64,000 nucleotides of DNA from an uncultured Lachnospira sp. (GCA_910585095.1 CAJUBU010000002.1:76622-140621), one strand, 5' to 3'. Shown: positions 28,293-54,513, numbered from the stretch's first letter. The notes: generated by a model not told the origin, from the letters alone. Program-made: numbers and translations.

Positions 28293-31200
28293 TTAATCCT
28301 TAAAATCTGCCTCAGATAAAAAGAAAATATCCCCTTGCTCGCCACGTTTTTTCTTTACGCCGCCAAAAAATCGCCTTGCAGCTCTTTTTTCTGAATGTGC
28401 AATTGCCTTATTAATAATCTCTTTTATATCATCCAACTTAATATTGTCGGTCATAGAATGCAGTTCATTAATTTTAAGATATAATGCCAACAACGCATCA
28501 TCATCTACTTCATATTGACGCTTGCGTGCAAATTTTCTTGCCATCTCAACCAATTCATTAACCGTGTATTGTTTTAAAACAATTCTGTGATTAAACATAT
28601 TGACTAAATCTGGATTAAAATTTAACAACACATTCATCTGTGCATCGGAATCTTCAAAAATCACTATCATTCTTCCAGTATTTTGTTCCAGACAATCCAT
28701 CAATTCCTCAATACGCTTTGGCTGAATAGAACCTGCTCCCTCTACAATCAGCACTGTTCCACGCAGCTTTGACATCGCTTTTGCAATTCCCCTATGATTG
28801 ATACTGTCACCTGTTGTCTTTGCAATCTTTTTAGGTACTTCTGGATACAAATAATTTAATGCTCTTACTATATTTCTTGCTAAATCGGTCTTATCAGAAC
28901 TTGAATTTCCTGTGATAAGAATATTGCCAACGCTAGAATCAACCATATTCATCTCATCATCAATCGATGCAAAATAAGCTGCAAGTTGGCTCTCTATTCC
29001 TGGCATTTCTCTATATTTTCTAAATATCTTTGCCAATTCACCCTCAAGCTTGAGATTTTCTGCAAACTCTCCTTCCTCATATTCGTCTATTGATTCAACT
29101 AACTGTGGTCTTCTTATTTTTCTGCTTTCGTCAGAAAATGATTCTGATGACAAATCTCTTTCTACAAATTGTTCTTCTAAATAGGATTCATTTGAAAGCT
29201 GTTCTTGTAAAACACTTTCTTCTACAAATTGTTCTTCTGAAATATATTCTTCTGAAATCTGCTCATTTAATGATTCTTCCGTTGGAAATTGTTTGTTAGA
29301 AAATCCTTCGTCAACTTGCTGTTTATCAAAATCATCATTATCCAAAACACTTTGCTTTTGTACTAAATCATCTTCAATTTGTTCATTTTTATTTAAAGAT
29401 TCATTAGTAGTATTTTGACTTTGTTTTTCTAATTCCTTTGTAACATATTTGCGTAAAAGTTCATCAGAAACAACTTGCATTTGGATTGTATGTAATAAAA
29501 CTTCGGAAATTTCTTCCTCTGAAATTTTATCTGTATTATTACTTATTTTCTTTGTTTTTGCGCCAGCAGAATCTATTGTATTGACATCTACGAACTTATC
29601 AATCGTTCCATTAGATTCTATTTGTTTAATACTTTCTTTTATATTTTCTTGAATATAAGGTGAATGAATAAGCCTTATAATTTCATCTTCAAGACTGCGT
29701 GTTGCTTTTCCTGTTCGGAAAGCTAAATCCGTTTTTACCGAATCCACTAACATCTGAATATACTCTTTTTTCTTAGCATCATCAAAATCAATATCTGTAG
29801 AATTTTGTGCCTCTTGTTTTTGTTTTTTCATCAACATTTCATAAGCAGCACTCTTTTCATCTTTCTCCTCAAGCATACGCATTAATTCTTGCTTAGAAAA
29901 CTCTCTTGTACTTTGCTGTCCATATTTTTGTTCTCTTACAGATTCCATCCAATCTGCAAGATTCATCTGCCCTTCAATCTGTTCATTATCACTATAGCCT
30001 TCTAAATTAGAATCTTCTTCTTTGTTTGATGGCGTTATATTGGGTCTTAACTTTTCAATATCATCGTCCAAAAATTCTGCTAAAGTTTGAGCAATCGTTT
30101 CTTGAAGGTTTTGTGTATCATAAATATTATCGTCTGGCATCTTTACCTCTTCGATAACCATTTTATCCTCTCGTTCCCTCATCAACTGCTCTTGCTTTTC
30201 ACGTTCTTTTTTTATACGCTCTTGCTCATGTTCCTTATTCATTTCATTATAGCTGGTATCAATACTTTTTCTTGCATTTGAAATCAACTTCATTAAAGAT
30301 TCTGGAATTTCTCCTGTATCTTTTTTAACCGTCGATTTTACATTTTCTTGATTCTGCAAAATATCGCTTTCTACTGCTATAGTCGTCTGCTGATGCTCCT
30401 GCGTTTTTATTTGTTCTTGTTCATGATTTTTGTTTAAATCACTAATATTATTAGAATGATTCATTTTATCGGAATCATTAACTATACTTGAACCACTCAT
30501 TCTATCAAAATGATTTGTTTCTTCATTTATATTATTTATCTTTTCATTATCAACATATTTATTGTTTTCACTTATATGTGCTTGTGAATCAACATCTGTT
30601 ATCTCAGATTTTTCTTCTTTTTCAGGCAGCTCAAATGTTTCTAATTCTTCTGGCTGCTGTTCCTTCATCCGTTTTTCTTCAGACTCACGAACCTTTGCTA
30701 AAACAAATTCTCTAAGATTATATGTCACATTACTATTTGCTGTATCTGCTTTTTCTTTGACATCTTCTTTTTCTGTTTTATTATCAATTTTATTATCCAT
30801 AAAAGGATTTTTCTTTTGAGATTTGTCTTTTGTCGACTCACTGTTTTGTTCATTCTCATAAATATCAATAGCTTCTTTTGGCAATGGTTTAGAAGCTGGT
30901 TTTGAAAAAAGTCCAAGCAATCCCCTGCTTTTCTTTTCATCTTCTTCTAAAACTTCGTCAATATCATCATGCTGCATTCTTGTCAGTTCAGATTGCTGTT
31001 CAAATAGTAAATCTCTTGATATTTTTGAATCTTTCTTTTTTGCTTGCTCAAGCTGTTTTGTTTGATGTTTTGTCAATTCTCCGCCGACTTTACTTTTAAG
31101 CAACATTGCTTTCTCAACATATTTTCCATCTTGAAACAATAAAGCTAATTCATCACAAGCCTCAATACATTCATTTGTCCTGCCTGTTTTTGAGTATAAC

Positions 31201-31661
31201 TTTGCCAATTCATACATATATTTTTCATCAATTTCTTTGGCTTTATACTCTTCCAAAATTTCTACAAGTTCGTTATTTGATGCCCCTTGTGCCTTTTTTA
31301 AATTATATTGTAAAATATATCGATTGACATCATGCGAAGACATCTTTTCATACTCATCATACAACCCTTGCGCCTCATCAAGCTGTTCCAATTTAATTAA
31401 AAGTTCTGTCAACTTATATACAAGCTTTCGACCGCCAAGATTACGGTTGTATGCTAAAATAGCCATATCTCTTGCTTCTTCATAATCACCAACTGCTTCA
31501 TGAACACTGATAGCTGCTGCTAATGCAGACCAATCTTTAACTTTGTGCCAGCTCATACTTTTAGCCATCTCTGCCGCTTCTTTGTATGACTTAATTGAAG
31601 CTAATCTTTTTATTTCTTCTATTTTTAAATTTAATTCATATTTATCCAATCCAGACGCCAC
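28293..31661 (-). CDS. Giant TPR / acidic low-complexity / SpoVK-CbbX-like AAA+ protein with degenerate Walker motifs
   Basis: N-terminal TPR-like helices. About 650 aa are rich in E/K/Q/N/D. The C-terminal block aligns to the SpoVK pattern (NILITGNSSSDKTDLARNIV ... VLIVEGAGSI ... NFNPDLVNMFNHRIVLKQYTVNEL). Confidence 0.6.
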   Translation of the reverse strand: MASGLDKYELNLKIEEIKRLASIKSYKEAAEMAKSMSWHKVKDWSALAAAISVHEAVGDYEEARDMAILAYNRNLGGRKLVYKLTELLIKLEQLDEAQGLYDEYEKMSSHDVNRYILQYNLKKAQGASNNELVEILEEYKAKEIDEKYMYELAKLYSKTGRTNECIEACDELALLFQDGKYVEKAMLLKSKVGGELTKHQTKQLEQAKKKDSKISRDLLFEQQSELTRMQHDDIDEVLEEDEKKSRGLLGLFSKPASKPLPKEAIDIYENEQNSESTKDKSQKKNPFMDNKIDNKTEKEDVKEKADTANSNVTYNLREFVLAKVRESEEKRMKEQQPEELETFELPEKEEKSEITDVDSQAHISENNKYVDNEKINNINEETNHFDRMSGSSIVNDSDKMNHSNNISDLNKNHEQEQIKTQEHQQTTIAVESDILQNQENVKSTVKKDTGEIPESLMKLISNARKSIDTSYNEMNKEHEQERIKKEREKQEQLMREREDKMVIEEVKMPDDNIYDTQNLQETIAQTLAEFLDDDIEKLRPNITPSNKEEDSNLEGYSDNEQIEGQMNLADWMESVREQKYGQQSTREFSKQELMRMLEEKDEKSAAYEMLMKKQKQEAQNSTDIDFDDAKKKEYIQMLVDSVKTDLAFRTGKATRSLEDEIIRLIHSPYIQENIKESIKQIESNGTIDKFVDVNTIDSAGAKTKKISNNTDKISEEEISEVLLHTIQMQVVSDELLRKYVTKELEKQSQNTTNESLNKNEQIEDDLVQKQSVLDNDDFDKQQVDEGFSNKQFPTEESLNEQISEEYISEEQFVEESVLQEQLSNESYLEEQFVERDLSSESFSDESRKIRRPQLVESIDEYEEGEFAENLKLEGELAKIFRKYREMPGIESQLAAYFASIDDEMNMVDSSVGNILITGNSSSDKTDLARNIVRALNYLYPEVPKKIAKTTGDSINHRGIAKAMSKLRGTVLIVEGAGSIQPKRIEELMDCLEQNTGRMIVIFEDSDAQMNVLLNFNPDLVNMFNHRIVLKQYTVNELVEMARKFARKRQYEVDDDALLALYLKINELHSMTDNIKLDDIKEIINKAIAHSEKRAARRFFGGVKKKRGEQGDIFFLSEADFKD

Positions 31662-44145: not shown

Positions 44146-45942
44146 CTATAAAACTTCATCTACAGAATATACAAACACACCATTACTTTTGCCTTTCAAA
44201 GGAATAATGCCAACTTCGGTCACTTGAACACGCTCTTTTACCTGCTCATAGACATCTTGACTGATAAGGATTTGTCCTGGTTTTGCATTGCTTTCTAATC
44301 TTGCAGCAGTGTTTACAGTATCGCCAATTGCTGTATAATCCATACGAGCCTCACACCCAATATTTCCCACGACTGCATTGCCACAGTTTACACCAATACC
44401 AAAACTTATTGTTTTGCCAAAACGTTTTTGGAGCTTTTCCTGCAATTCGGCACTTCCTGCTGCAATATCCCTTGCAGTACATACCGCCTTGTATATATAA
44501 TCCTCTAAATCAAATGGTGCATTAAACACTGCCATTGTTGCATCACCAATAAATTTGTCAAGTGTTCCGCCATTTTTAAATATAGAATCTGTCGTAAGAT
44601 TCAAATACTCATTTAAAATCCCTACAACTTCCTCTGGCTGCAATGATTCAGACATTGGCGTAAAACCGCGTATATCAACAAACAACACAGCTATATGGCG
44701 ATTTTCTCCGCCTAAGGCAATCTGGAAATCTCCTTTTTTTGAAATTTCCTCCACAACTTGTGGTGCAACATATTTTTTAAATGCAGATAAAACTTTTCTT
44801 TTATGAAGCACCTCTGCCAAATATTCATATATTAAGTGTACCACGTATGTTAATAACAGAACAATAGGCAATTCTACAATATTTATAATAAAGCCGTTTA
44901 AGTATAAAACTTTGCCCACAGCAACATCAAAAACAATCAGAGCCAGCAATAAAATAATACTGTAACGAATCTTTAATTTTCGGATTAAAAAATAAAATCC
45001 TACAACAATAACTGTACATATTAATGCGTAAAGCGCGCTATTAACTGGAAGTGCTGTTTTTCCTTCCATAACAGCCTCAAGTATATTGGCATGAATTTCT
45101 ACCCCGTACATCTGTGCGCCTTTTTGGACAGCTACATTGTAGGCATCCTGAAGTCCTGGTGCATATACGCCAACCAGAACAATTCGGTCAGCAAACGCCC
45201 TGACATCAACTTTTCCCTGCATAACATCAAGCATAGAAACAATTTCATAAGCGCCGCTTTTTCCTGTAAATGTAAAGCCAAAAATACCATTGGCATCGGT
45301 GTCTGGCATCTGCACTGCAATTCCCCTGCTCTCACAGTAATGCCTGTAAGCACAGATTGCTAAGGAAGGGATTTCTTCTCCCTTATAGTCCGCTTTTGTC
45401 AACGCATAACGAATATATCCATCGGTATCTTGTATCGTGTTTGCAAAGCCATAATCTGTTACTTGCTTTAATGCCTCATATGGAAACTCCACTGTCTCCA
45501 CATGGTTACTATCCACATAAAGACCATTGGAACCTTGCGTTACTTTTGTTTTCCTTACCACGTCAACGGCAGTGATAACGTTGCCTGCCTTCTTACAGGC
45601 ATCGGCAAATTCTTTATCATCTGCATCATTTGTTGTGCCTGCATATATAATATCCATAACAATAGCTGAAGGCGCCGACTGCTCATTTTGATTTAACATT
45701 TCAATAAGCTGTGCATATCGGCTTCGACTCCATGTTTCAATCTTTCCATATTCTTGCAACGTTTTTTCGTCGATTGCAATGATTGCAATATCTTTATTGG
45801 CTGTTGTCGGCGTTTGATAACACATATCTGAAAATATCTTATCAAACGAATACAAAATCTGCGACCAACATAACAAAAATGTCAATAAAGCAATAATAAC
45901 AGGAATGATATATTTCCATATAAGTTTTCTTGTATTTTTCAT
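44146..45942 (-). CDS. CHASE2-sensor class III adenylate cyclase
   Basis: An N-terminal TM and a periplasmic CHASE2-like domain (IAIIAIDEKTLQEYG...WSRSRYAQLI), followed by three TM helices. Cyclase domain (VLFVDIRGFT, LDKFIGDATMAVF, DYTAIGDTVNTAARLES). A GGAGA RBS is present. Confidence 0.85.
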   Translation of the reverse strand: MKNTRKLIWKYIIPVIIALLTFLLCWSQILYSFDKIFSDMCYQTPTTANKDIAIIAIDEKTLQEYGKIETWSRSRYAQLIEMLNQNEQSAPSAIVMDIIYAGTTNDADDKEFADACKKAGNVITAVDVVRKTKVTQGSNGLYVDSNHVETVEFPYEALKQVTDYGFANTIQDTDGYIRYALTKADYKGEEIPSLAICAYRHYCESRGIAVQMPDTDANGIFGFTFTGKSGAYEIVSMLDVMQGKVDVRAFADRIVLVGVYAPGLQDAYNVAVQKGAQMYGVEIHANILEAVMEGKTALPVNSALYALICTVIVVGFYFLIRKLKIRYSIILLLALIVFDVAVGKVLYLNGFIINIVELPIVLLLTYVVHLIYEYLAEVLHKRKVLSAFKKYVAPQVVEEISKKGDFQIALGGENRHIAVLFVDIRGFTPMSESLQPEEVVGILNEYLNLTTDSIFKNGGTLDKFIGDATMAVFNAPFDLEDYIYKAVCTARDIAAGSAELQEKLQKRFGKTISFGIGVNCGNAVVGNIGCEARMDYTAIGDTVNTAARLESNAKPGQILISQDVYEQVKERVQVTEVGIIPLKGKSNGVFVYSVDEVL

Positions 45943-46133
45943 TGCTTTTTTCTCCAAAACTTTATAAGTACTATAAAAATTAAATATAATATTCAACTTA
46001 TAACTTAAAAATAAATCTTAATATTCTCTACAAAATAATCAGTTTACATAGTTTATATATATATCGGCAATTTCTTTTAAAAACATAGCGAAAATTGCTA
46101 TAAAATAACAATTTTACTATAACAATGAAACTG

Positions 46134-46802
46134 CTATAACCATTCTTTAAAATTGGAATCTAAACTATTGAACTGAAAATCCTTTAACGCATGATCCAAT
46201 GCTTTTGTAATAGTCTCCGACTGTTTAGCAAGCTTTTCCAATTCCATATAATCATAATCCAACGAAGTTATAAATATCACTCGAACTGCTTTTACAGCCC
46301 TATGAACACCATACTGTTTTATATAGGCAGCACCTATCTTACTAAAATTCAATCCTTTTCGGACAGCTTCCTTACTGACACGCACCTGTTCTCTATAACT
46401 ATTCACCGATATCCTTGTCATAAAACCATACGGATGCACATGATATTTACTGTGCTGTATACATTTAATAGAGTCATAAATTGTGTCGTCTAAAAGAATC
46501 TCATCTTCATCAACCAGCAGTTGAATAATTCGAGCATAAGGCGTATCTTCTTTTATTTGACCAATATCTTTCCCTATAAGAAGAATCTCATTCTCTTTTA
46601 CTAACGAACAGTCCGTAGTCATCATTTGAACAGAGATGGACGGCATAGATGCTGCACCTAACTCATATGCCATATCAGGCATAAAAACAATACTGTCACT
46701 GTCGTTATCCGGCCAACTATTCATATGAATATGCAATGTTTGCGTATAAGAACATTCTATACTTTTATTTAATTTTTTTATTATTTCATCATATATCTTC
46801 AA
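46134..46802 (-). CDS. Hypothetical protein, 222 aa, no recognisable motif
   Basis: Clean ORF with non-repetitive composition, standing alone between flanking operons. I cannot assign a family by eye. Confidence 0.5.
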   Translation of the reverse strand: MKIYDEIIKKLNKSIECSYTQTLHIHMNSWPDNDSDSIVFMPDMAYELGAASMPSISVQMMTTDCSLVKENEILLIGKDIGQIKEDTPYARIIQLLVDEDEILLDDTIYDSIKCIQHSKYHVHPYGFMTRISVNSYREQVRVSKEAVRKGLNFSKIGAAYIKQYGVHRAVKAVRVIFITSLDYDYMELEKLAKQSETITKALDHALKDFQFNSLDSNFKEWL

Positions 46803-48243: not shown

Positions 48244-48869
48244 GATTAATTAAAAAAGATTTGTTTATGGCAAAAAGCAACTTTAAAACATTAGCAATTA
48301 TATTTGTTGTATTTACATTTACCGCAATCAACGGAAATGAAAACTTTGTTTTTATTCCTGCTTTTATGAGCGTTATGATAATGATGTCAACATTTAGCTA
48401 TGATGAATATAATAAAACCGATGCTTTTATATCAACGCTTCCAAATGGCAAAAAAAATGCAATCAAATCAAAATATGCAGCAACGCTATTTATTACTTTA
48501 ATATCCGTTCTATTAACGTTTATTATTTGCGTTGTTGTTGGATATGCAAAAAATAGTTTAAATATGGAATATATTATAGCAACGACTTTAGGCTGCTGCG
48601 TAGGGGTTATATTGTTACAGTCTATTATTTATCCATTTATTTTTAAATATGGAATAGAAAAAAGCAGAATCGGAATATTTGTAGGGATATTTGCAATTAC
48701 AGGCATTGCTGCATTTCTGGCGAAAAGCGGATATACAATAACGATTCCTCAAAATATCCTCACCTTGCTTAATAATTACTGGATGATAATGATACCGCTT
48801 ATTACCATCATCATATTATTTCTTTCATATAAAATATCAGAGCATTTATATTGTAAAAAGGAATTTTAA
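48237..48869 (+). CDS. ABC-2 type membrane permease
   Basis: Six predicted TM helices, and overlaps the ATPase gene end. This matches the standard YtrA-type regulator / ATPase / ABC-2 permease module. Confidence 0.7.
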   Translation: MLGLIKKDLFMAKSNFKTLAIIFVVFTFTAINGNENFVFIPAFMSVMIMMSTFSYDEYNKTDAFISTLPNGKKNAIKSKYAATLFITLISVLLTFIICVVVGYAKNSLNMEYIIATTLGCCVGVILLQSIIYPFIFKYGIEKSRIGIFVGIFAITGIAAFLAKSGYTITIPQNILTLLNNYWMIMIPLITIIILFLSYKISEHLYCKKEF

Positions 48870-48945
48870 TTGTAAGAAATTATAGTATATATAGTAACTG
48901 TAATAAAACCTGCTTTTCTCCAAATTAAATAGGAACTGCCACACT

Positions 48946-49010
48946 GATATGCTCCCTCCTAAGTGACAAGCTTTTATTATTTCACTTGTCTACCTAGATG
49001 GGAGCATATC
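48946..49010. terminator. Long imperfect palindrome between convergent genes (possible bidirectional terminator)
   Basis: GATATGCTCCC (48946-48956) pairs perfectly with GGGAGCATATC (49000-49010). Inner partial pairing is GTGACAAG / CTTGTC-AC. A/T-rich flanks on both sides. Confidence 0.35.
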
Positions 49011-49202
49011 AAATCCATCAGCAGAAAAACTTTTTATTTTTTCAATTGTCTATTTGACGGAAAGCAGTTTATTTTTGTTTTAATTTCGTATTTTTTTCAG
49101 CACATTACTTTTCATTTTTACAATTACATATCATACAGCTATTTTTATCATATATGTTATATAACAAAATTACTACTATCGCAATATTTACAGTAAACAT
49201 TA

Positions 49203-52200
49203 TCAAAAACATTCCCGAATTTTCTTATATATTGCTTTGCATTTGCGTCCAAATGTCTGTTTCATAACCCTAAAAATTCCCCACATACCAGATTCTACAT
49301 CCCATGCAAAACTGCCTGAGCGATAAAGGTAATCACCAGGACAACTGGCGCCATCTAAAAGTTCCACATCAAACTTATTGCCAATACTAACACCACCTTG
49401 TAAAGGAATAATTCTTGAAAATGGGTCTTGTAGCTGTTCTTTCCATAAATGGTCGTGAATTGCAATAGATGTATTTCTTGGCTTATCTGCGGGCATTATA
49501 ACTCGAAAAACAACTCGGTCTCCAGGATAGGCTTTCCATATAGGAGTTGCTGGGTCGCCATGTACTTTACTACTAAATACCTTCCATACTCTAGGGTCTC
49601 TTGCAAGACGATTTGCAAATCGTTCCGACCTATAATTGTAGCCTTTTTCTCCTGTGTCTTCTGCATCTACTGGCTCTCCGTTATCCTCTGCCGCAGTTTG
49701 GATTATATTTCCCTTTACATCAAGCAAACGGATTCCATTTTGAATAAATACAACATATTCTCGAAAATTCTCAATTCCTGGCGCTGTAATTACTGCCTGT
49801 TCTGCAAAATCATCTTTTTTTCTGGTAAAATTTCGATACCACTCTGCACCTGCTGGTTCTACAATAACCGCTCCAAATAATCCATGATAACGATGGTTTC
49901 TCATATCTCCAAAAGACTGTATAATACAGCCTCCATACTCTTGATTTGCATGCCAAAGATATCGCTTGCTCTCTCCAACCCCTACGGTCTGTTCCATTTC
50001 ATTATACCCTATATTGATGCCAGAATCACAAACGGGATTATATTGCAGAAATTGCGGATTTAAAGAAACTCTCATAGAAGGTGTATATTCCTTATCCAAA
50101 GGAACTCTCGGATAAGAAAAATAAGGAATTGGATGTTCTGGATTCCATGCATTATGCAAGGTAACCTCTATCCAGTCGCCTACATTTGCCCTGAGAATTA
50201 ATGGCTTTGGCATACATTTTCCTGACAATATATTATCCAAGTCCTCTAGGGGAACAAATAGCAAGCCATTTGGGTCATGGTCACCATATCGGTTGTAAAT
50301 TAACTTCTTTTGCACAGCAACAATTTCATAGCGCCTAATTACATCATCTTTTGACGGACAAGGCAAAAGAGGGTGAATCATACCTTTTCCTTGATATAAT
50401 GGTTTTAAGTGCTTTCTATATCTTCTATGCACTCGTATAATCCCCCAAAGTCCAAGCCATACATCATCAATACCTCCAAAATAATAGAGATAGTCTCCTG
50501 CACCATATTTTTGCGTTACATTCAAATTAAATGCCTCTGATACTCCTAATGTCTGAGAAGCGGCAAGGGGTGACTTGAAATCTGCGGATTCTTTTTTCCA
50601 TGACATACCTGTAATATTAAAGGAATGCTGTTCCTCATGCGCTCCGTCAAGCAGGCGAATCATCAATTCATCACCTGGATAGGTTTCAAAAATTGGTGTT
50701 GCTGGGTCACCATGCACAAAAGAGCTAAAAATATATGCTGGGTCTTCTTTTTTGCGAAGACGCTCTCTCATTGGCTCTGCTCTGTAATTAATTCCCATAA
50801 CACCTGGGTCGTCATGAGAACCAGGAACTTTCGGCGGATTAAGCGGGTTCCCTTTTCTATCGAAAAGAAAAGCAAAATCATGGACAAACAAAGCAAATTC
50901 CCTGAACGAAGTTCCATTTTTTCTGCGGATAACCGCCTGTGTTCCAAAACGCAGCTCTTTTCCATTCTGTGGATTATGAAATGTAGCTCCTGCCTCCTCA
51001 ATAATCAATGCGCCAAACAATCCATGCTGCTGATGAACATTAGCAAACAGATGGTCATGAAAGAATATCGTTTTTAATTCTTCATTTGCAAAAAAACGTT
51101 CCACTAATGTTTCGTATCGCCTTGCACCTGCAATATTATTCCAGCCATTAGCTGCCCCGTCTGAAACAATAGTATCAAATTTTACTAAATGTACATGATG
51201 ACCTACAATATCCGTCCTCGTTTTAGGCTGAAATGGACTTTCTTCAATAAATTCAGGCAAAAGGTTTGTGGTGCGTAGCTCAATACAATCTCCTGCATTT
51301 GCACGAATGACTAAAGGTTCTACTTTTATTTCTTGTTTTTCTACTTTACGAATATAACACTCCAAGCCTCCATAACGCTCCAATTCTTCCTTGAGAACAA
51401 AAAAACGTCCCTGTGGGTCATGCCAGCCATAGCGGTTATAGGTGATTTTTGCCTGTACCATGGCAATCTCAAATATTTTTACATTCTTATCTGTATGACA
51501 TGGACAAGTGTCTGTATACAATGCACCAGGCACTGCATTTTCCACAAAATTAGCACGCTCAAGCGGGGTTGGTTTATTAGTCACTTCCCCATTTGGTCTC
51601 AATACACCAAGCGGTGGCTGCAACGGCTTTTCACCAAACTTGCCCTCAATAAAATTAGGATAACCTGGATGCATGTTATCTTTCTTTGGTGGACACTCCC
51701 TGTCTTTTAACGGCACAAGCGGCAAAATAGGTGTCCCATCAGGCAATTTTCCACTCCCATCCTGAAGTCGGTCATAAATTCTCCATAAAGTCCACATTCC
51801 CTCAATAAAATGAGGATAGAGATGACAATGAAATATCACGTCTCCAATCACTCTATTTAGGCTTCCAGCTCCGTATAAAATATCTAATGTATAACATTCT
51901 TGTGGACTAATACTAACAGAATCCAGAATCGTTGAAACGGGATTGTCTGGCTCTAATCTCCACTGATGGTTATGAAGATGAAAAACATGAGTTTCCTTCA
52001 CTCCACCATGAATCAATCGTATCTTTACTGGGTCGCCGACATAAGCAAAAAGTATTGGCGGCGCTGGGTCACCATATACCCATGAACTCATAGATACATC
52101 TTCTGCAGAGTCAGCAGGGTCATGTGTTTTTGGCATTCGATTTCGCATAGGTTCAGAACGATAACTGATTGCTGTTGTTGATGCTGGAAGTCCTGTATGA

Positions 52201-52850
52201 GTATCAACTGGCGGTTCACCATCTTTATTTAAAATTTCCAACTCATCGTGAAAAAAAATACTATACTCCCTAAATGCTGGCTTTCCGGGCTGGTAAATAT
52301 CTGCCATCAACCCGCTTTTCAATTCTTCACCCGTTTCTGGATTAAACCACTTTGCTTCTGGCGCTTCTACAATAACAGCTCCAAACAGACCATGAATGTT
52401 AGTTGCATCTTCTGTACTTCTGCAATCTGCCATATCGTGAAACAGATATACGCCCTCTGTATCCGCATACCACGTATACCAGATTTCTCCGCTTGTAGTG
52501 CTGTCATTATTGTATCCTACACTGCTTCCATCTGAAGTATTAACATCATAAGAAAGTCCTTGTACATGTATCGACAATCTCCGATTGAGACAATTCCGAA
52601 ATCGAACTTTCACCGTATCTCCTAAATTAACGCGAATTACTAACGGTTGCACTTCCTTATATGGCTGTGGTATATCCATCTCAAATCGTTGGAGTGCTTC
52701 TCTTTTAATCCTTGCAGCATCTTCCTCAAACACATAAAGCAGTCCATTCGGGTCATAATCTCCATATCGATTATATACAATAGGAATCTGTATTGCCTCA
52801 ATATGAAAAATCTTGACATTTTCTTTCTTTGGGTATTTGCATAATTCCAT
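49203..52850 (-). CDS. Leaderless multicopper-oxidase-like protein of about 1215 aa built from three tandem two-domain repeats (six predicted cupredoxin domains)
   Basis: Canonical MCO motifs HVFHLH (HxxHxH) and HCHLYPHFIEGM (HCHx3Hx4M), plus HHVHL and FHDH. Three-fold repetition of the blocks NVKIF.I..Q..YNRYG.(Y/H)DP.G, PL(V/I)(I/L)RAN.GD, HGLFGA(V/L)I(V/I)E, FRE(Y/F), YR(S/A)E and HGDPA(T/P)PI. The ATG at 52850 follows a GGTAGGA RBS and lies 1 nt after the upstream stop. Confidence 0.7.
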   Translation of the reverse strand: MELCKYPKKENVKIFHIEAIQIPIVYNRYGDYDPNGLLYVFEEDAARIKREALQRFEMDIPQPYKEVQPLVIRVNLGDTVKVRFRNCLNRRLSIHVQGLSYDVNTSDGSSVGYNNDSTTSGEIWYTWYADTEGVYLFHDMADCRSTEDATNIHGLFGAVIVEAPEAKWFNPETGEELKSGLMADIYQPGKPAFREYSIFFHDELEILNKDGEPPVDTHTGLPASTTAISYRSEPMRNRMPKTHDPADSAEDVSMSSWVYGDPAPPILFAYVGDPVKIRLIHGGVKETHVFHLHNHQWRLEPDNPVSTILDSVSISPQECYTLDILYGAGSLNRVIGDVIFHCHLYPHFIEGMWTLWRIYDRLQDGSGKLPDGTPILPLVPLKDRECPPKKDNMHPGYPNFIEGKFGEKPLQPPLGVLRPNGEVTNKPTPLERANFVENAVPGALYTDTCPCHTDKNVKIFEIAMVQAKITYNRYGWHDPQGRFFVLKEELERYGGLECYIRKVEKQEIKVEPLVIRANAGDCIELRTTNLLPEFIEESPFQPKTRTDIVGHHVHLVKFDTIVSDGAANGWNNIAGARRYETLVERFFANEELKTIFFHDHLFANVHQQHGLFGALIIEEAGATFHNPQNGKELRFGTQAVIRRKNGTSFREFALFVHDFAFLFDRKGNPLNPPKVPGSHDDPGVMGINYRAEPMRERLRKKEDPAYIFSSFVHGDPATPIFETYPGDELMIRLLDGAHEEQHSFNITGMSWKKESADFKSPLAASQTLGVSEAFNLNVTQKYGAGDYLYYFGGIDDVWLGLWGIIRVHRRYRKHLKPLYQGKGMIHPLLPCPSKDDVIRRYEIVAVQKKLIYNRYGDHDPNGLLFVPLEDLDNILSGKCMPKPLILRANVGDWIEVTLHNAWNPEHPIPYFSYPRVPLDKEYTPSMRVSLNPQFLQYNPVCDSGINIGYNEMEQTVGVGESKRYLWHANQEYGGCIIQSFGDMRNHRYHGLFGAVIVEPAGAEWYRNFTRKKDDFAEQAVITAPGIENFREYVVFIQNGIRLLDVKGNIIQTAAEDNGEPVDAEDTGEKGYNYRSERFANRLARDPRVWKVFSSKVHGDPATPIWKAYPGDRVVFRVIMPADKPRNTSIAIHDHLWKEQLQDPFSRIIPLQGGVSIGNKFDVELLDGASCPGDYLYRSGSFAWDVESGMWGIFRVMKQTFGRKCKAIYKKIRECF

Positions 52851-52851
52851 A

Positions 52852-53763
52852 CTAATTCCTACCCTTCTGTGCATGATTTAAAATACGTAAATAGTGATTT
52901 GCTTCACGAAGTACATGGTCTGCCAAAAGAGGAAGAATAACAGAACGGATTTTACAATCTGTAATACCTTGTGTTCCCGCTGTCTTAAACTGCTGATATT
53001 GTTTTGTTGTCTGCAATGTTGTTGCAGTCAACGCATTCATTACTTTTCTTTCCTGTTCTCTCGCCTCTTCTAAAAGATGACAGTAATCTTTTGCAAATTC
53101 ATTGGCTTTTTCAATCAATTCACACTCTGTTGGGTCTAATAATCCCCGAATAAACTGAGCATGTTCCATCATAATCTGATTCCAAAATATTTCCATATTT
53201 CTTAAATCAAACATTGGGATTCTACCATTCTTTTCAAGCTCTAAAATAATCTGGCGATATAATTTCGCTTCCCGCAAGATATGTTCAATCAACAGGGGAT
53301 AATTTGTAGTATAAAGTCTACACCTTGTCACTTCTCTTAAAACCTCTTCTTTAAATGAAATCAATCCATTCAAGCTTTTTAGCATCTGGCGATTTAACAT
53401 TCTTACCTGAGAAATCATTTGTCTATTTACCATCATATTATTTTTAGAACAAAGTTGTTCTTCCTCCTCCGTAATCTTCACATCAATTGGGATTCCTGTC
53501 AAATCGCTTGTCTGGCATTCTGCTTTTTGCGTAAATTCTGTTACAACCTCTCCAGAATCTAAAACAGCTTGGCTTACAATGCCATTTGCAAGCTCTACTG
53601 TCTTTTTTAATCCCTCCTCAAATTCTTGTCGGAAGCAATCTGCACGCTGTATAAACTCGGTTTCCTTTGTCGGAAAACTTGCGAGCAAAAATAAGGAATG
53701 TTCCTTCATAATTCTTCCAAAAAAAAGATGTGTTTCTAGTGATAAAGTCGCATATTCTTTCAT
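52852..53763 (-). CDS. DUF2935-like helical (putative metal-binding) protein with internal duplication
   Basis: Two homologous halves each carry IM(K/M)EH(S/A).F and PLL(I/A)(E/D)H(I/V)LREA(K/N).Y. From memory the pattern matches Firmicute DUF2935 proteins. Confidence 0.6.
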   Translation of the reverse strand: MKEYATLSLETHLFFGRIMKEHSLFLLASFPTKETEFIQRADCFRQEFEEGLKKTVELANGIVSQAVLDSGEVVTEFTQKAECQTSDLTGIPIDVKITEEEEQLCSKNNMMVNRQMISQVRMLNRQMLKSLNGLISFKEEVLREVTRCRLYTTNYPLLIEHILREAKLYRQIILELEKNGRIPMFDLRNMEIFWNQIMMEHAQFIRGLLDPTECELIEKANEFAKDYCHLLEEAREQERKVMNALTATTLQTTKQYQQFKTAGTQGITDCKIRSVILPLLADHVLREANHYLRILNHAQKGRN

Positions 53764-53967
53764 ATATTAGCATACCTTTATAATTTAGAGTTCTCTATAC
53801 TATATGCAAAAAATATCAAAAAGACATACATAAAACCAAGAAATCTATGAAGTTTTCTGCTCTTTTTTGACATAGAACAATTAGAATGAATTGAAATTTC
53901 ACAATATTGGTGATATGATAACAAATATGATAAAAACTGCCAAAAAACACCAAAAGGAAATAAGCTT

Positions 53968-54513
53968 GTGAATAATAACAATCCAAACATGATTATTACA
54001 AATAATTTTTGCGACAACTTATATTCGCCTGATACAAATTTTTATAAAGAAGATATAAAATATATGAAAGCTGCAATCAATCAGGCAAAAAAAGCCTATG
54101 CGCTTATGGAAGTACCAATTGGCTGTGTTATTGTATATCAAAATAAAATTATCGGACGCGGATACAACCGCCGCAATACAGATAAGACAACACTTGGTCA
54201 TGCAGAACTTACTGCTATTAAAAAAGCGAGCAAAAAAATAGGCGACTGGCGTTTAGAAGATTGTGTTATATATATCACTTTAGAGCCTTGCCAAATGTGT
54301 GCTGGCGCCATTGTACAAGCCCGAATACCAAGAGTTGTAATAGGCGCTATGAATCCAAAAGCAGGCTGTGCTGGTTCTATATTAAATATTTTAGAAATGC
54401 CTCAATTTAATCATACATGCCATGTTACAAGAGGCGTTATGAATGATGAATGCAGCAATCTGCTATCACAATTTTTTAAAGAACTGCGCCTTTCTAAAAC
54501 AAAAAAAATATAA
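53968..54513 (+). CDS. tadA: tRNA adenosine(34) deaminase TadA
   Basis: CDA zinc motifs HAELTAI and PCQMCAGA. The GTG at 53968 follows AAGGA with about 9 nt spacing. Alternative ATGs at 53989 and 54064 lack an RBS. Confidence 0.85.
   Translation: MNNNNPNMIITNNFCDNLYSPDTNFYKEDIKYMKAAINQAKKAYALMEVPIGCVIVYQNKIIGRGYNRRNTDKTTLGHAELTAIKKASKKIGDWRLEDCVIYITLEPCQMCAGAIVQARIPRVVIGAMNPKAGCAGSILNILEMPQFNHTCHVTRGVMNDECSNLLSQFFKELRLSKTKKI

Follow-up and report, generated by a model that had tools for sequence, protein, structure and literature searches.

A MnxG-family multicopper oxidase gene coupled to a DUF2935 gene behind a sporulation-type promoter motif in gut Lachnospiraceae

RESULTS

Two closely coupled genes on the minus strand

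The DNA analyzed here (the window) is a 64,000-nucleotide (nt) stretch from an uncultured Lachnospira sp. (GCA_910585095.1 CAJUBU010000002.1:76622-140621). Its positions 49203-53763, on the minus strand, hold a two-gene module: a DUF2935 gene of 303 amino acids (aa) at 52852-53763, followed by a gene for a six-domain multicopper oxidase (MCO) of the MnxG family, with 1215 aa, at 49203-52850. All coordinates given below for features of the module refer to this strand. The oxidase gene belongs to a long open reading frame (ORF) spanning 49203-52874, and its start is likely the ATG at 52850 rather than 52874, because the TAG of the upstream 303-codon ORF (52854-52852) is followed by one T and then by this ATG. 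Oxidase residues are therefore numbered from 52850. The ribosome-binding region of the oxidase gene, the purine-rich GAAGGGTAGGAA (52856-52867), lies within the 3' end of the DUF2935 gene. The encoded N terminus, MELCKYPKKENVKIF, has neither a hydrophobic nor a twin-arginine leader.

The oxidase is built from three repeats. In BLASTP comparisons, repeat 1 is 31.5% identical to repeat 2 over 400 aa (E 3e-57) and 30% identical to repeat 3 over 388 aa (E 3e-40), and repeats 2 and 3 share 32% identity over 379 aa (E 4e-50). Seven sequence blocks, YNRYG, DPxG, PL[VI][IL]R[AV]N, HGLFGA, FRE[YF], YR[SA]E, and GDPA[TP]P, occur exactly three times each and in the same order. As delimited by the repeat alignment, repeat 1 (aa 11-455; 51486-52820) comprises domains 1 and 2 plus a linker, repeat 2 (aa 456-835; 50346-51485) comprises domains 3 and 4, and repeat 3 (aa 836-1197; 49260-50345) comprises domains 5 and 6.

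The oxidase is a full-length member of the Bacillus-type MnxG family

Pfam recognized both Cu-oxidase_3 (58.7 bits against a cutoff of 21, E 7.9e-16) and Cu-oxidase_2 (29.7 bits against a cutoff of 20.4, E 6.4e-7) in the protein. The top phmmer match in the PDB was the MnxG chain 9bxa_A (E 0, 1033 bits), in which residues 3-1207 of 1227 aligned with residues 13-1199 of the window oxidase; the remaining PDB sequence matches were two-domain laccases, at ~1e-12, and coagulation factor V. Identity to the Mesobacillus MnxG used here, which is itself 93% identical to 9bxa_A, reaches 43.5% over 1234 columns. An AlphaFold model of residues 1-1200, with a predicted local distance difference test (pLDDT) score of 71.6, superimposed on 9bxa_A with template modeling (TM) scores of 0.91/0.90. 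Ceruloplasmin and factors V/VIII came next, at TM 0.52-0.65, and two-domain laccases matched single repeats of the model. The NCBIfam equivalog model for MnxG, NF041487, scored 342.6 bits against a cutoff of 3100. At 1894 positions, this model is much longer than the ~1200-aa Bacillus-type proteins; it is therefore probably a model of the long Pseudomonas-type MnxG and says little on Bacillus-type membership; we treated the result as uninformative for this reason. The window oxidase is a full-length member of the Bacillus-type MnxG family, composed of three fused two-domain-laccase-like units that make up six cupredoxin domains. MnxG-like six-domain proteins of Clostridium had been listed by 2013 (PMC3600357).

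A single catalytic copper set at one of three unit interfaces

The chain carries one complete set of MCO ligands, made up of a single type 1 (T1) copper site (His, Cys, His, Met) and eight trinuclear-cluster histidines in four motifs. The T1 ligands H288, C342, H347, and M352 and the cluster histidines H291, H293, H341, and H343 occur only in the second domain of repeat 1, within HVFHLHNH (aa 288-295; 51966-51989) and HCHLYPHFIEGM (aa 341-352; 51795-51830). The other four cluster histidines, H552 and H554 in HVH (aa 552-554; 51189-51197) and H598 and H600 in HDH (aa 598-600; 51051-51059), occur only in the first domain of repeat 2, i.e., domain 3. Repeat 1 holds the sole T1 site and half of the trinuclear-cluster ligands, and repeat 2 the other half. 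Positions matching these ligands in the other repeats are mostly substituted, domains 4 and 6 included, and repeat 3 lacks a canonical copper site, keeping H1134 and the invariant H1132. The catalytic copper set is kept at only one of the three pseudo-symmetric unit interfaces.

Residue conservation was assessed in 116 aligned sequences, 56 from the Lachnospiraceae clade of the window oxidase and 60 from Bacillaceae. All 12 ligand positions are invariant in both groups and in four more distant relatives. H347 aligns with an Ala of the 9bxa chain, an entry that is entitled "Mnx H340A complex". At the repeat-3/repeat-1 interface, H95 and H1132 are invariant in both groups, and the histidines that Bacillaceae carry at the repeat-2/repeat-3 interface (positions 747 and 931 of the window oxidase) are absent from the Lachnospiraceae clade. 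We speculate that such vestigial interface histidines may bind the substrate metal. The Lachnospiraceae oxidases also have conserved His and Cys residues of their own, e.g., CPCH (449-452), in the linker that connects repeats 1 and 2, and Cys 4 and Cys 1204 near the termini (MELC..., ...KC...). Neither CPCH nor the terminal cysteines are conserved in Bacillaceae; these residues could serve as additional sites for metal or cross-linking.

A preliminary description of this locus, made by a model from the DNA sequence, had anticipated much of this architecture. Its reading of the TAG placed 1 nt ahead of the ATG, of the leaderless N terminus, of the internal triplication with ordered blocks in each repeat, and of six cupredoxin domains of MCO type agrees with our results, including the Pfam Cu-oxidase matches and the cupredoxin fold of the model that it had proposed to look for, and its pointer to MnxG was the right lead. 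The canonical MCO motifs that it reported are indeed present, in one set rather than one per repeat. The scaffold that it took for undescribed is homologous over its full length to Bacillus MnxG, whose structure has been solved.

The partner is a two-repeat DUF2935 protein

The upstream gene product, also foreseen as a DUF2935-like protein, matches Pfam PF11155 (221.7 bits against 24.4, E 3.4e-66) in two stretches, though the internal repeat is undetectable by BLASTP. In the PDB it matched 3d19, deposited as a "conserved metalloprotein" (E 2.7e-31), and also 3dby. Its model (pLDDT 73.7) is all-helical and returned only these two structures in Foldseek (E 4e-8, TM 0.68-0.81); the fold search past its own family, among hemerythrin, ferritin/Dps, and DinB types, found nothing significant (best nonfamily E 0.14). 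Across 59 partner sequences, the conserved residues fall into two similar sets, E10/H12/E21/H22/H161/E165 and E191/E200/H201/H283/E287/H290, and (E/D)H ... H..RE motifs are common to the window protein and the Bacillus cereus structures. The depositors' title and these conserved His/Glu residues point to putative metal binding by the protein. DUF2935 is a wide family, with 7787 matches at E<=1e-5 among 8000 scored candidates, B. cereus proteins included. A literature search on DUF2935 and 3D19 found no paper on the function of the family.

The gene pair is common in related loci and repeatedly broken up

Relatives of the oxidase were searched in 185,579 species, with one genome each, which yielded 493 stretches. 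Locus comparisons were made with the best 80 of these (68-91% identity to the window oxidase), all from Lachnospiraceae or related gut Clostridia and among them the isolates Blautia hominis, Faecalicatena fissicatena, Sporofaciens, Diplocloster, Anaerostipes faecalis, and Velocimicrobium. Sufficient upstream sequence for a count of the pairing was available in 76 loci. In 62 of them, the oxidase gene is immediately preceded, on the same strand, by a DUF2935 gene, one of which is a truncated remnant (L005) and one apparently frameshifted (L007). The distance from the DUF2935 stop to the oxidase ATG ranges from -20 to +21 nt in 55 of 56 loci, which, together with the 1-nt gap in the window, bears out the tight coupling of both genes proposed earlier. 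Because the flanking genes vary between loci, the pair itself is the conserved unit.

In the other 14 of the 76 loci the oxidase gene stands alone beside unrelated genes, and several of these (L025, L029, L054/58/59/69, and L065) keep the promoter and leader described below. A locus from a Mediterraneibacter metagenome-assembled genome (MAG; L031, 1042-1198) has DUF2935 cut to a 38-codon in-frame remnant, MNNYIRTSLETHLFFGRIMKEH fused to VLREANHYLRILKQGGE, which joins the first and last conserved DUF2935 helices; that locus has an intact promoter, CATATATTA, and an intact oxidase gene. Since several lineages deleted DUF2935 and kept the oxidase and promoter, the partner appears helpful but dispensable. 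The nearest outgroup loci examined, from a Clostridium sp. (55% identity), a Bacillota MAG (49%), and a 39% relative, have no DUF2935 nearby. DUF2935 is a lineage-specific partner, often retained and repeatedly lost. A survey of homologous neighborhoods, as the preliminary description had advised, thus finds the pairing common (62 of 76 loci) and not universal, and the term "obligately paired" does not fit the 14 solitary oxidase genes, the deletion remnants, or the outgroup loci.

The surroundings of two outgroup homologues deserve a record. That of Clostridium sp. stands alone and is followed by two A_ENA (PF26595) endospore-appendage genes and then by a P-type ATPase gene (L082, 9122-10540). 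The Bacillota homologue is convergent with genes for a CsoR-like repressor, a 66-aa protein, and a P-type ATPase (L084, 8824-11713), in a single case of what is possibly a copper-homeostasis cluster.

A conserved sporulation-type promoter motif precedes the operon

Upstream of DUF2935, the loci are unrelated except for a block, GCATATAnTATAaAGAA, and a leader, TATAAAGGTATGC. In the window, a sigma-K-type promoter motif at 53798-53823 consists of a C at 53823, a 16-nt spacer, and the -10 element CATATAGTA (53806-53798), 43 nt upstream of the DUF2935 ATG. The leader includes a Shine-Dalgarno-like AAAGG (53775-53779) upstream of the DUF2935 start. When 51 loci were aligned on CATA, a C stood at -17 in 80%, with A or C at -18 and -19 and a 16-nt spacer, and CATA[T/C]AnT[A/G] was located 31-50 nt from the start codon. 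Among 59 loci with sufficient upstream sequence, 39 carry the full motif at this one position; its background is 78 occurrences in 2.27 Mb, both strands counted (0.034 per kb). Mesobacillus has the same type of arrangement, AC-N17-CATAnnnTA, 40 nt upstream of mnxD, and the mnx-like operon of Anaerosporobacter (L083; motif CATATACTA) is preceded by it at a distance of 59 nt. Reportedly, a sigma-K-like site upstream of mnx was already described by van Waasbergen in 1996. Sigma-E and sigma-K promoters of Clostridioides difficile have a common -10 element and different -35 elements (ATA for sigma-E, AC for sigma-K), as in sigK P2, with the -10 element CATATAAT and AC at -35, and the sigma-K regulon of this species comprises coat and exosporium proteins, including metal enzymes (PMC3789822). 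We infer that C-N16-CATAtAnTA is a promoter of the sigma-K type, active late in the mother cell.

A locus of a Tyzzerella MAG (L074) has a second copy of promoter and leader, TTGCATACTATAAAGAG...TATAAAGGTATGC, in the spacer between the DUF2935 and oxidase genes, 71 nt before the oxidase ATG; the oxidase gene may have its own sporulation promoter there.

A simple scan for sigma-70 promoters and terminators gave counts at the level of shuffled sequence, and an Rfam scan of 48800-54100 for a leader RNA gave no match. The 330-nt gap between the oxidase gene and a convergent ABC-2 permease gene contains a strong hairpin (48945-49011), missed by the simple terminator scan, with 20-nt arms that are 85% complementary and an RNA fold of -39.3 kcal/mol (z -6.45). 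It is probably a bidirectional terminator that closes the operon.

DUF2935 occupies the operon position of mnxD-E-F

The Mesobacillus operon has the order mnxD (254 aa), mnxE (110 aa), mnxF (97 aa), and mnxG, and the DUF2935 gene of the window holds the position that mnxD-E-F take in Bacillaceae. The active Bacillus enzyme is a MnxE3F3G complex, in which MnxE/F are needed and bind copper (PMC5622069). In Anaerosporobacter, a more distant cluster of the Lachnospiraceae, a MnxG homologue with 41% identity to the window oxidase is preceded by genes for a 113-aa MnxE homologue (E 4.6e-16) and an 80-aa MnxF-like protein (E 0.003), with no DUF2935. Because Anaerosporobacter carries MnxE/F-like genes and the window type does not, both operon types exist in Clostridia.

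MnxD, and likewise a 297-aa gene product encoded downstream of Mesobacillus mnxG, was considered as a diverged DUF2935 protein and rejected (BLASTP E at least 0.29, no Pfam match). The two are related to each other: the C-terminal part of MnxD is paralogous to the product of the 297-aa gene, which overlaps the end of mnxG (L081, 5509-6273 and 10668-11561; 28.7% identity over 136 aa, E 2.5e-8), and neither has a Pfam match.

Genomic surroundings

The window is a housekeeping region with whiA, rapZ, murB, hprK, uvrC, dnaX, recR, metG, tatD, and ksgA. Elsewhere on its minus strand are a 1122-aa ORF for which Pfam has no match at 1e-5 (28293-31661) and, at 44146-46802, a gene for a CHASE2-sensor adenylate/guanylate cyclase (616 aa) followed by one for a 222-aa protein with a weak match (27.5 bits) to CdhC, the beta subunit of CO dehydrogenase/acetyl-CoA synthase.

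DISCUSSION

A probable spore-type oxidase operon

We consider it on balance probable that the locus is a spore-type, sigma-K-controlled bicistronic operon for a MnxG-family oxidase with a DUF2935 accessory protein, and that Mn(II) is the most likely substrate. The location of the enzyme is central to this interpretation. The Bacillus MnxG is a spore-coat/exosporium enzyme that is active only after sporulation (bioRxiv 10.1101/2022.11.10.515945), and its spore-layer location is also credited to Francis et al. 2002 by a citing paper. Like the window oxidase, Mesobacillus MnxG starts without a leader. The mother cell makes coat proteins in its cytoplasm, and these assemble on the forespore without any secretion signal. 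A missing leader therefore does not predict a cytoplasmic system and fits a spore-surface enzyme. The cytoplasmic location given in the preliminary description loses its ground here, since the leaderless state is common to spore-surface MnxG and a mother-cell sporulation-type promoter is conserved. The oxidase most likely works at the spore surface rather than in a new cytoplasmic redox system.

In the mechanism that we propose, the sigma-K-type promoter would drive a bicistronic mRNA late in sporulation, from which coupled translation in the mother cell would yield the DUF2935 protein and the oxidase; both would join the spore coat or exosporium without a signal peptide. On contact of the spore with O2, single electrons would be taken from the substrate at the T1 copper of domain 2, and O2 would be reduced to water at the trinuclear cluster between domains 2 and 3. 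By homology, oxidation of Mn(II) to Mn(III/IV) oxide would be the most plausible reaction, with a CotA-like phenol/pigment oxidase or metallo-oxidase activity as the alternative. The DUF2935 protein could be a dispensable accessory in metal supply or handling, in folding or assembly, or in coat anchoring, a role predicted from position and co-expression.

Several observations weigh against this interpretation. The promoter assignment is a consensus match, and the -35 region of the window has GTC in place of the consensus AC. At 53915-53943 on the minus strand, ~150 nt upstream of DUF2935, there is a sigma-70-like site, TTGGCA-17-TATCAT with a TG. We found no sporulation gene in the 64-kb window. 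MnxD/E/F were not found nearby by tblastn with the Mesobacillus and Anaerosporobacter versions in the window and in the 80 loci (within 6 kb; best E values 0.19-0.75, and 0.59 for the Mesobacillus proteins). The preliminary description had envisaged that the protein might turn out to be a straightforward MnxG orthologue with MnxE/F partners; it is a MnxG homologue, and no MnxE/F genes adjoin it. Bacillaceae-invariant histidines at positions 186, 226, 253, 254, 516, 767, and 931 are not His in the window oxidase, and the substrate could differ from Mn(II) because of such clade-specific His/Cys changes. A literature search found no expression, localization, or activity data for the Lachnospiraceae clade and no functional work on MnxG in Clostridium or Lachnospiraceae.

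Alternative explanations

The operon as first described would be something else altogether: a six-domain MCO-like scaffold of the vegetative cytoplasm that is obligately paired with a metalloprotein of the four-helix-bundle type, in an O2- or metal-detoxifying redox system of an anaerobe. The hosts are indeed gut anaerobes, the oxidase has no signal peptide or twin-arginine leader, and its gene is tightly coupled to that of a putative metalloprotein; the 49%-identical homologue next to a CsoR-like repressor and a P-type ATPase (one case) and the sigma-70-like site ~150 nt upstream in the window could be read in the same way. Nevertheless, we regard this explanation as improbable, given that spore-surface MnxG is equally leaderless and that the pairing is not obligate. 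Endospore-appendage genes also adjoin a related locus, and the sporulation-type promoter stands at a fixed distance in 51 loci, whereas the sigma-70-like site falls in sequence that is unconserved among related loci. It is still less credible, to the point of being very improbable, that the oxidase is an inactive structural coat scaffold that retains the cupredoxin fold without catalysis. Its copper ligands are lost at two of the three pseudo-symmetric interfaces, and the six-domain relatives factors V/VIII are noncatalytic; however, the complete T1 and trinuclear set is invariant in the 116 sequences and the four distant relatives, and the active Bacillus enzyme has the same single-site arrangement.

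A spore-surface location leaves the substrate and the part played by DUF2935 to be weighed. The enzyme could be a spore-surface oxidase other than a Mn oxidase, such as a CotA-like laccase or a cuprous/ferrous oxidase, with DUF2935 as a coat protein that shares the promoter and is otherwise functionally unlinked. The clade-specific changes at Bacillaceae-invariant histidines and the loss of MnxE/F speak for such an enzyme, and the partner would be no surprise as a bystander: repeated deletions have removed DUF2935 and spared the oxidase, the nearest outgroup loci do not carry DUF2935, and its family, with the thousands of matches given above, is far larger than the pairing. Against these points stand an architecture and copper ligands that are all those of MnxG, as well as a DUF2935 gene that is kept in ~80% of loci at -20 to +21 nt while its product has diverged to ~50% identity. 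Retention at such close spacing despite divergence argues for selection on co-expression. We judge this alternative possible, though unlikely, and prefer a spore-type Mn(II) oxidase operon with DUF2935 as an accessory.

A bolder extension of the preferred interpretation makes DUF2935 the functional replacement of MnxE/F. The protein would then be a metal-binding assembly or chaperone subunit of a new Mnx-like complex that strictly anaerobic gut Lachnospiraceae would carry on their spores; this complex would be switched on by oxygen outside the host, coat the spores with Mn oxide or another oxidized product, and so aid oxygen tolerance and host-to-host transmission. We put this forward as a tentative and rather doubtful idea. 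If true, it would assign a first function to DUF2935, a large family of Firmicutes that is represented by two orphan crystal structures.

No bacterial manganese oxidase has been studied better than MnxG, which is known from the spores of aerobic marine Bacillus. Among anaerobic gut Lachnospiraceae, a colinear relative whose copper site is intact is widespread. If the enzyme does reside on the spore surface, an oxygen-dependent enzyme would sit on the spores of organisms unable to grow in air, which would bear on the survival and transmission of gut commensal spores. The operon would also offer the first functional handle on DUF2935.

Comparison with known systems

The closest known system is the Bacillus MnxG of strains PL-12 and SG-1 (MnxE3F3G; 9bxa). 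The two oxidases are colinear (1215 versus 1227 aa), with ~43% identity and TM 0.91, and they share a single T1 site and trinuclear set at the repeat-1/repeat-2 interface, the lack of a signal peptide, and a sigma-K-like motif upstream. They differ in operon composition, with mnxD/E/F upstream in Bacillus and DUF2935 or nothing in the window clade; in hosts, which are aerobic Bacillaceae in one case and anaerobic gut Lachnospiraceae in the other; and in several Bacillaceae-invariant histidines that are replaced in the window clade, which has specific His/Cys residues elsewhere. The Anaerosporobacter system is likewise built on a clostridial six-domain MnxG homologue with a sigma-K-like motif upstream, but it has MnxE/F-like genes and no DUF2935, the reverse of the window clade. 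The B. cereus DUF2935 proteins (3d19, 3dby) resemble the partner protein in their two DUF2935 repeats, in sequence (E 2.7e-31 to 3d19), and in fold (TM ~0.7-0.8); no function has been described for them and they are not known to be linked to an MCO, whereas the window gene is coupled to that of a MnxG-family oxidase.

Among other MCOs, the trimeric two-domain laccases (SLAC, Streptomyces) align with each repeat of the window oxidase (E ~1e-12, TMt ~0.7) and likewise build the trinuclear cluster from domain 2 of one unit and domain 1 of its neighbor, but the window oxidase fuses three units in one chain and has copper ligands at one of the three interfaces. Ceruloplasmin and factors V/VIII share the six cupredoxin domains (TM 0.52-0.65) at an identity of ~12%. 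In ceruloplasmin, T1 sites occupy domains 2, 4, and 6, and the cluster forms between domains 1 and 6; the window oxidase has a single T1 site, in domain 2, and its cluster ligands lie in domains 2 and 3. The spore-coat laccase CotA of Bacillus subtilis is an MCO deposited on the spore without a signal peptide; it matches the window oxidase weakly in structure and differs in having three domains and ~510 aa, with no full-length homology. The enzyme family, the fold and structure, and the copper chemistry are therefore already known, and the operon is not a new kind of system. Undescribed in the searchable literature are the large Lachnospiraceae clade, its conserved sporulation-type promoter, and the replacement of mnxDEF by DUF2935.

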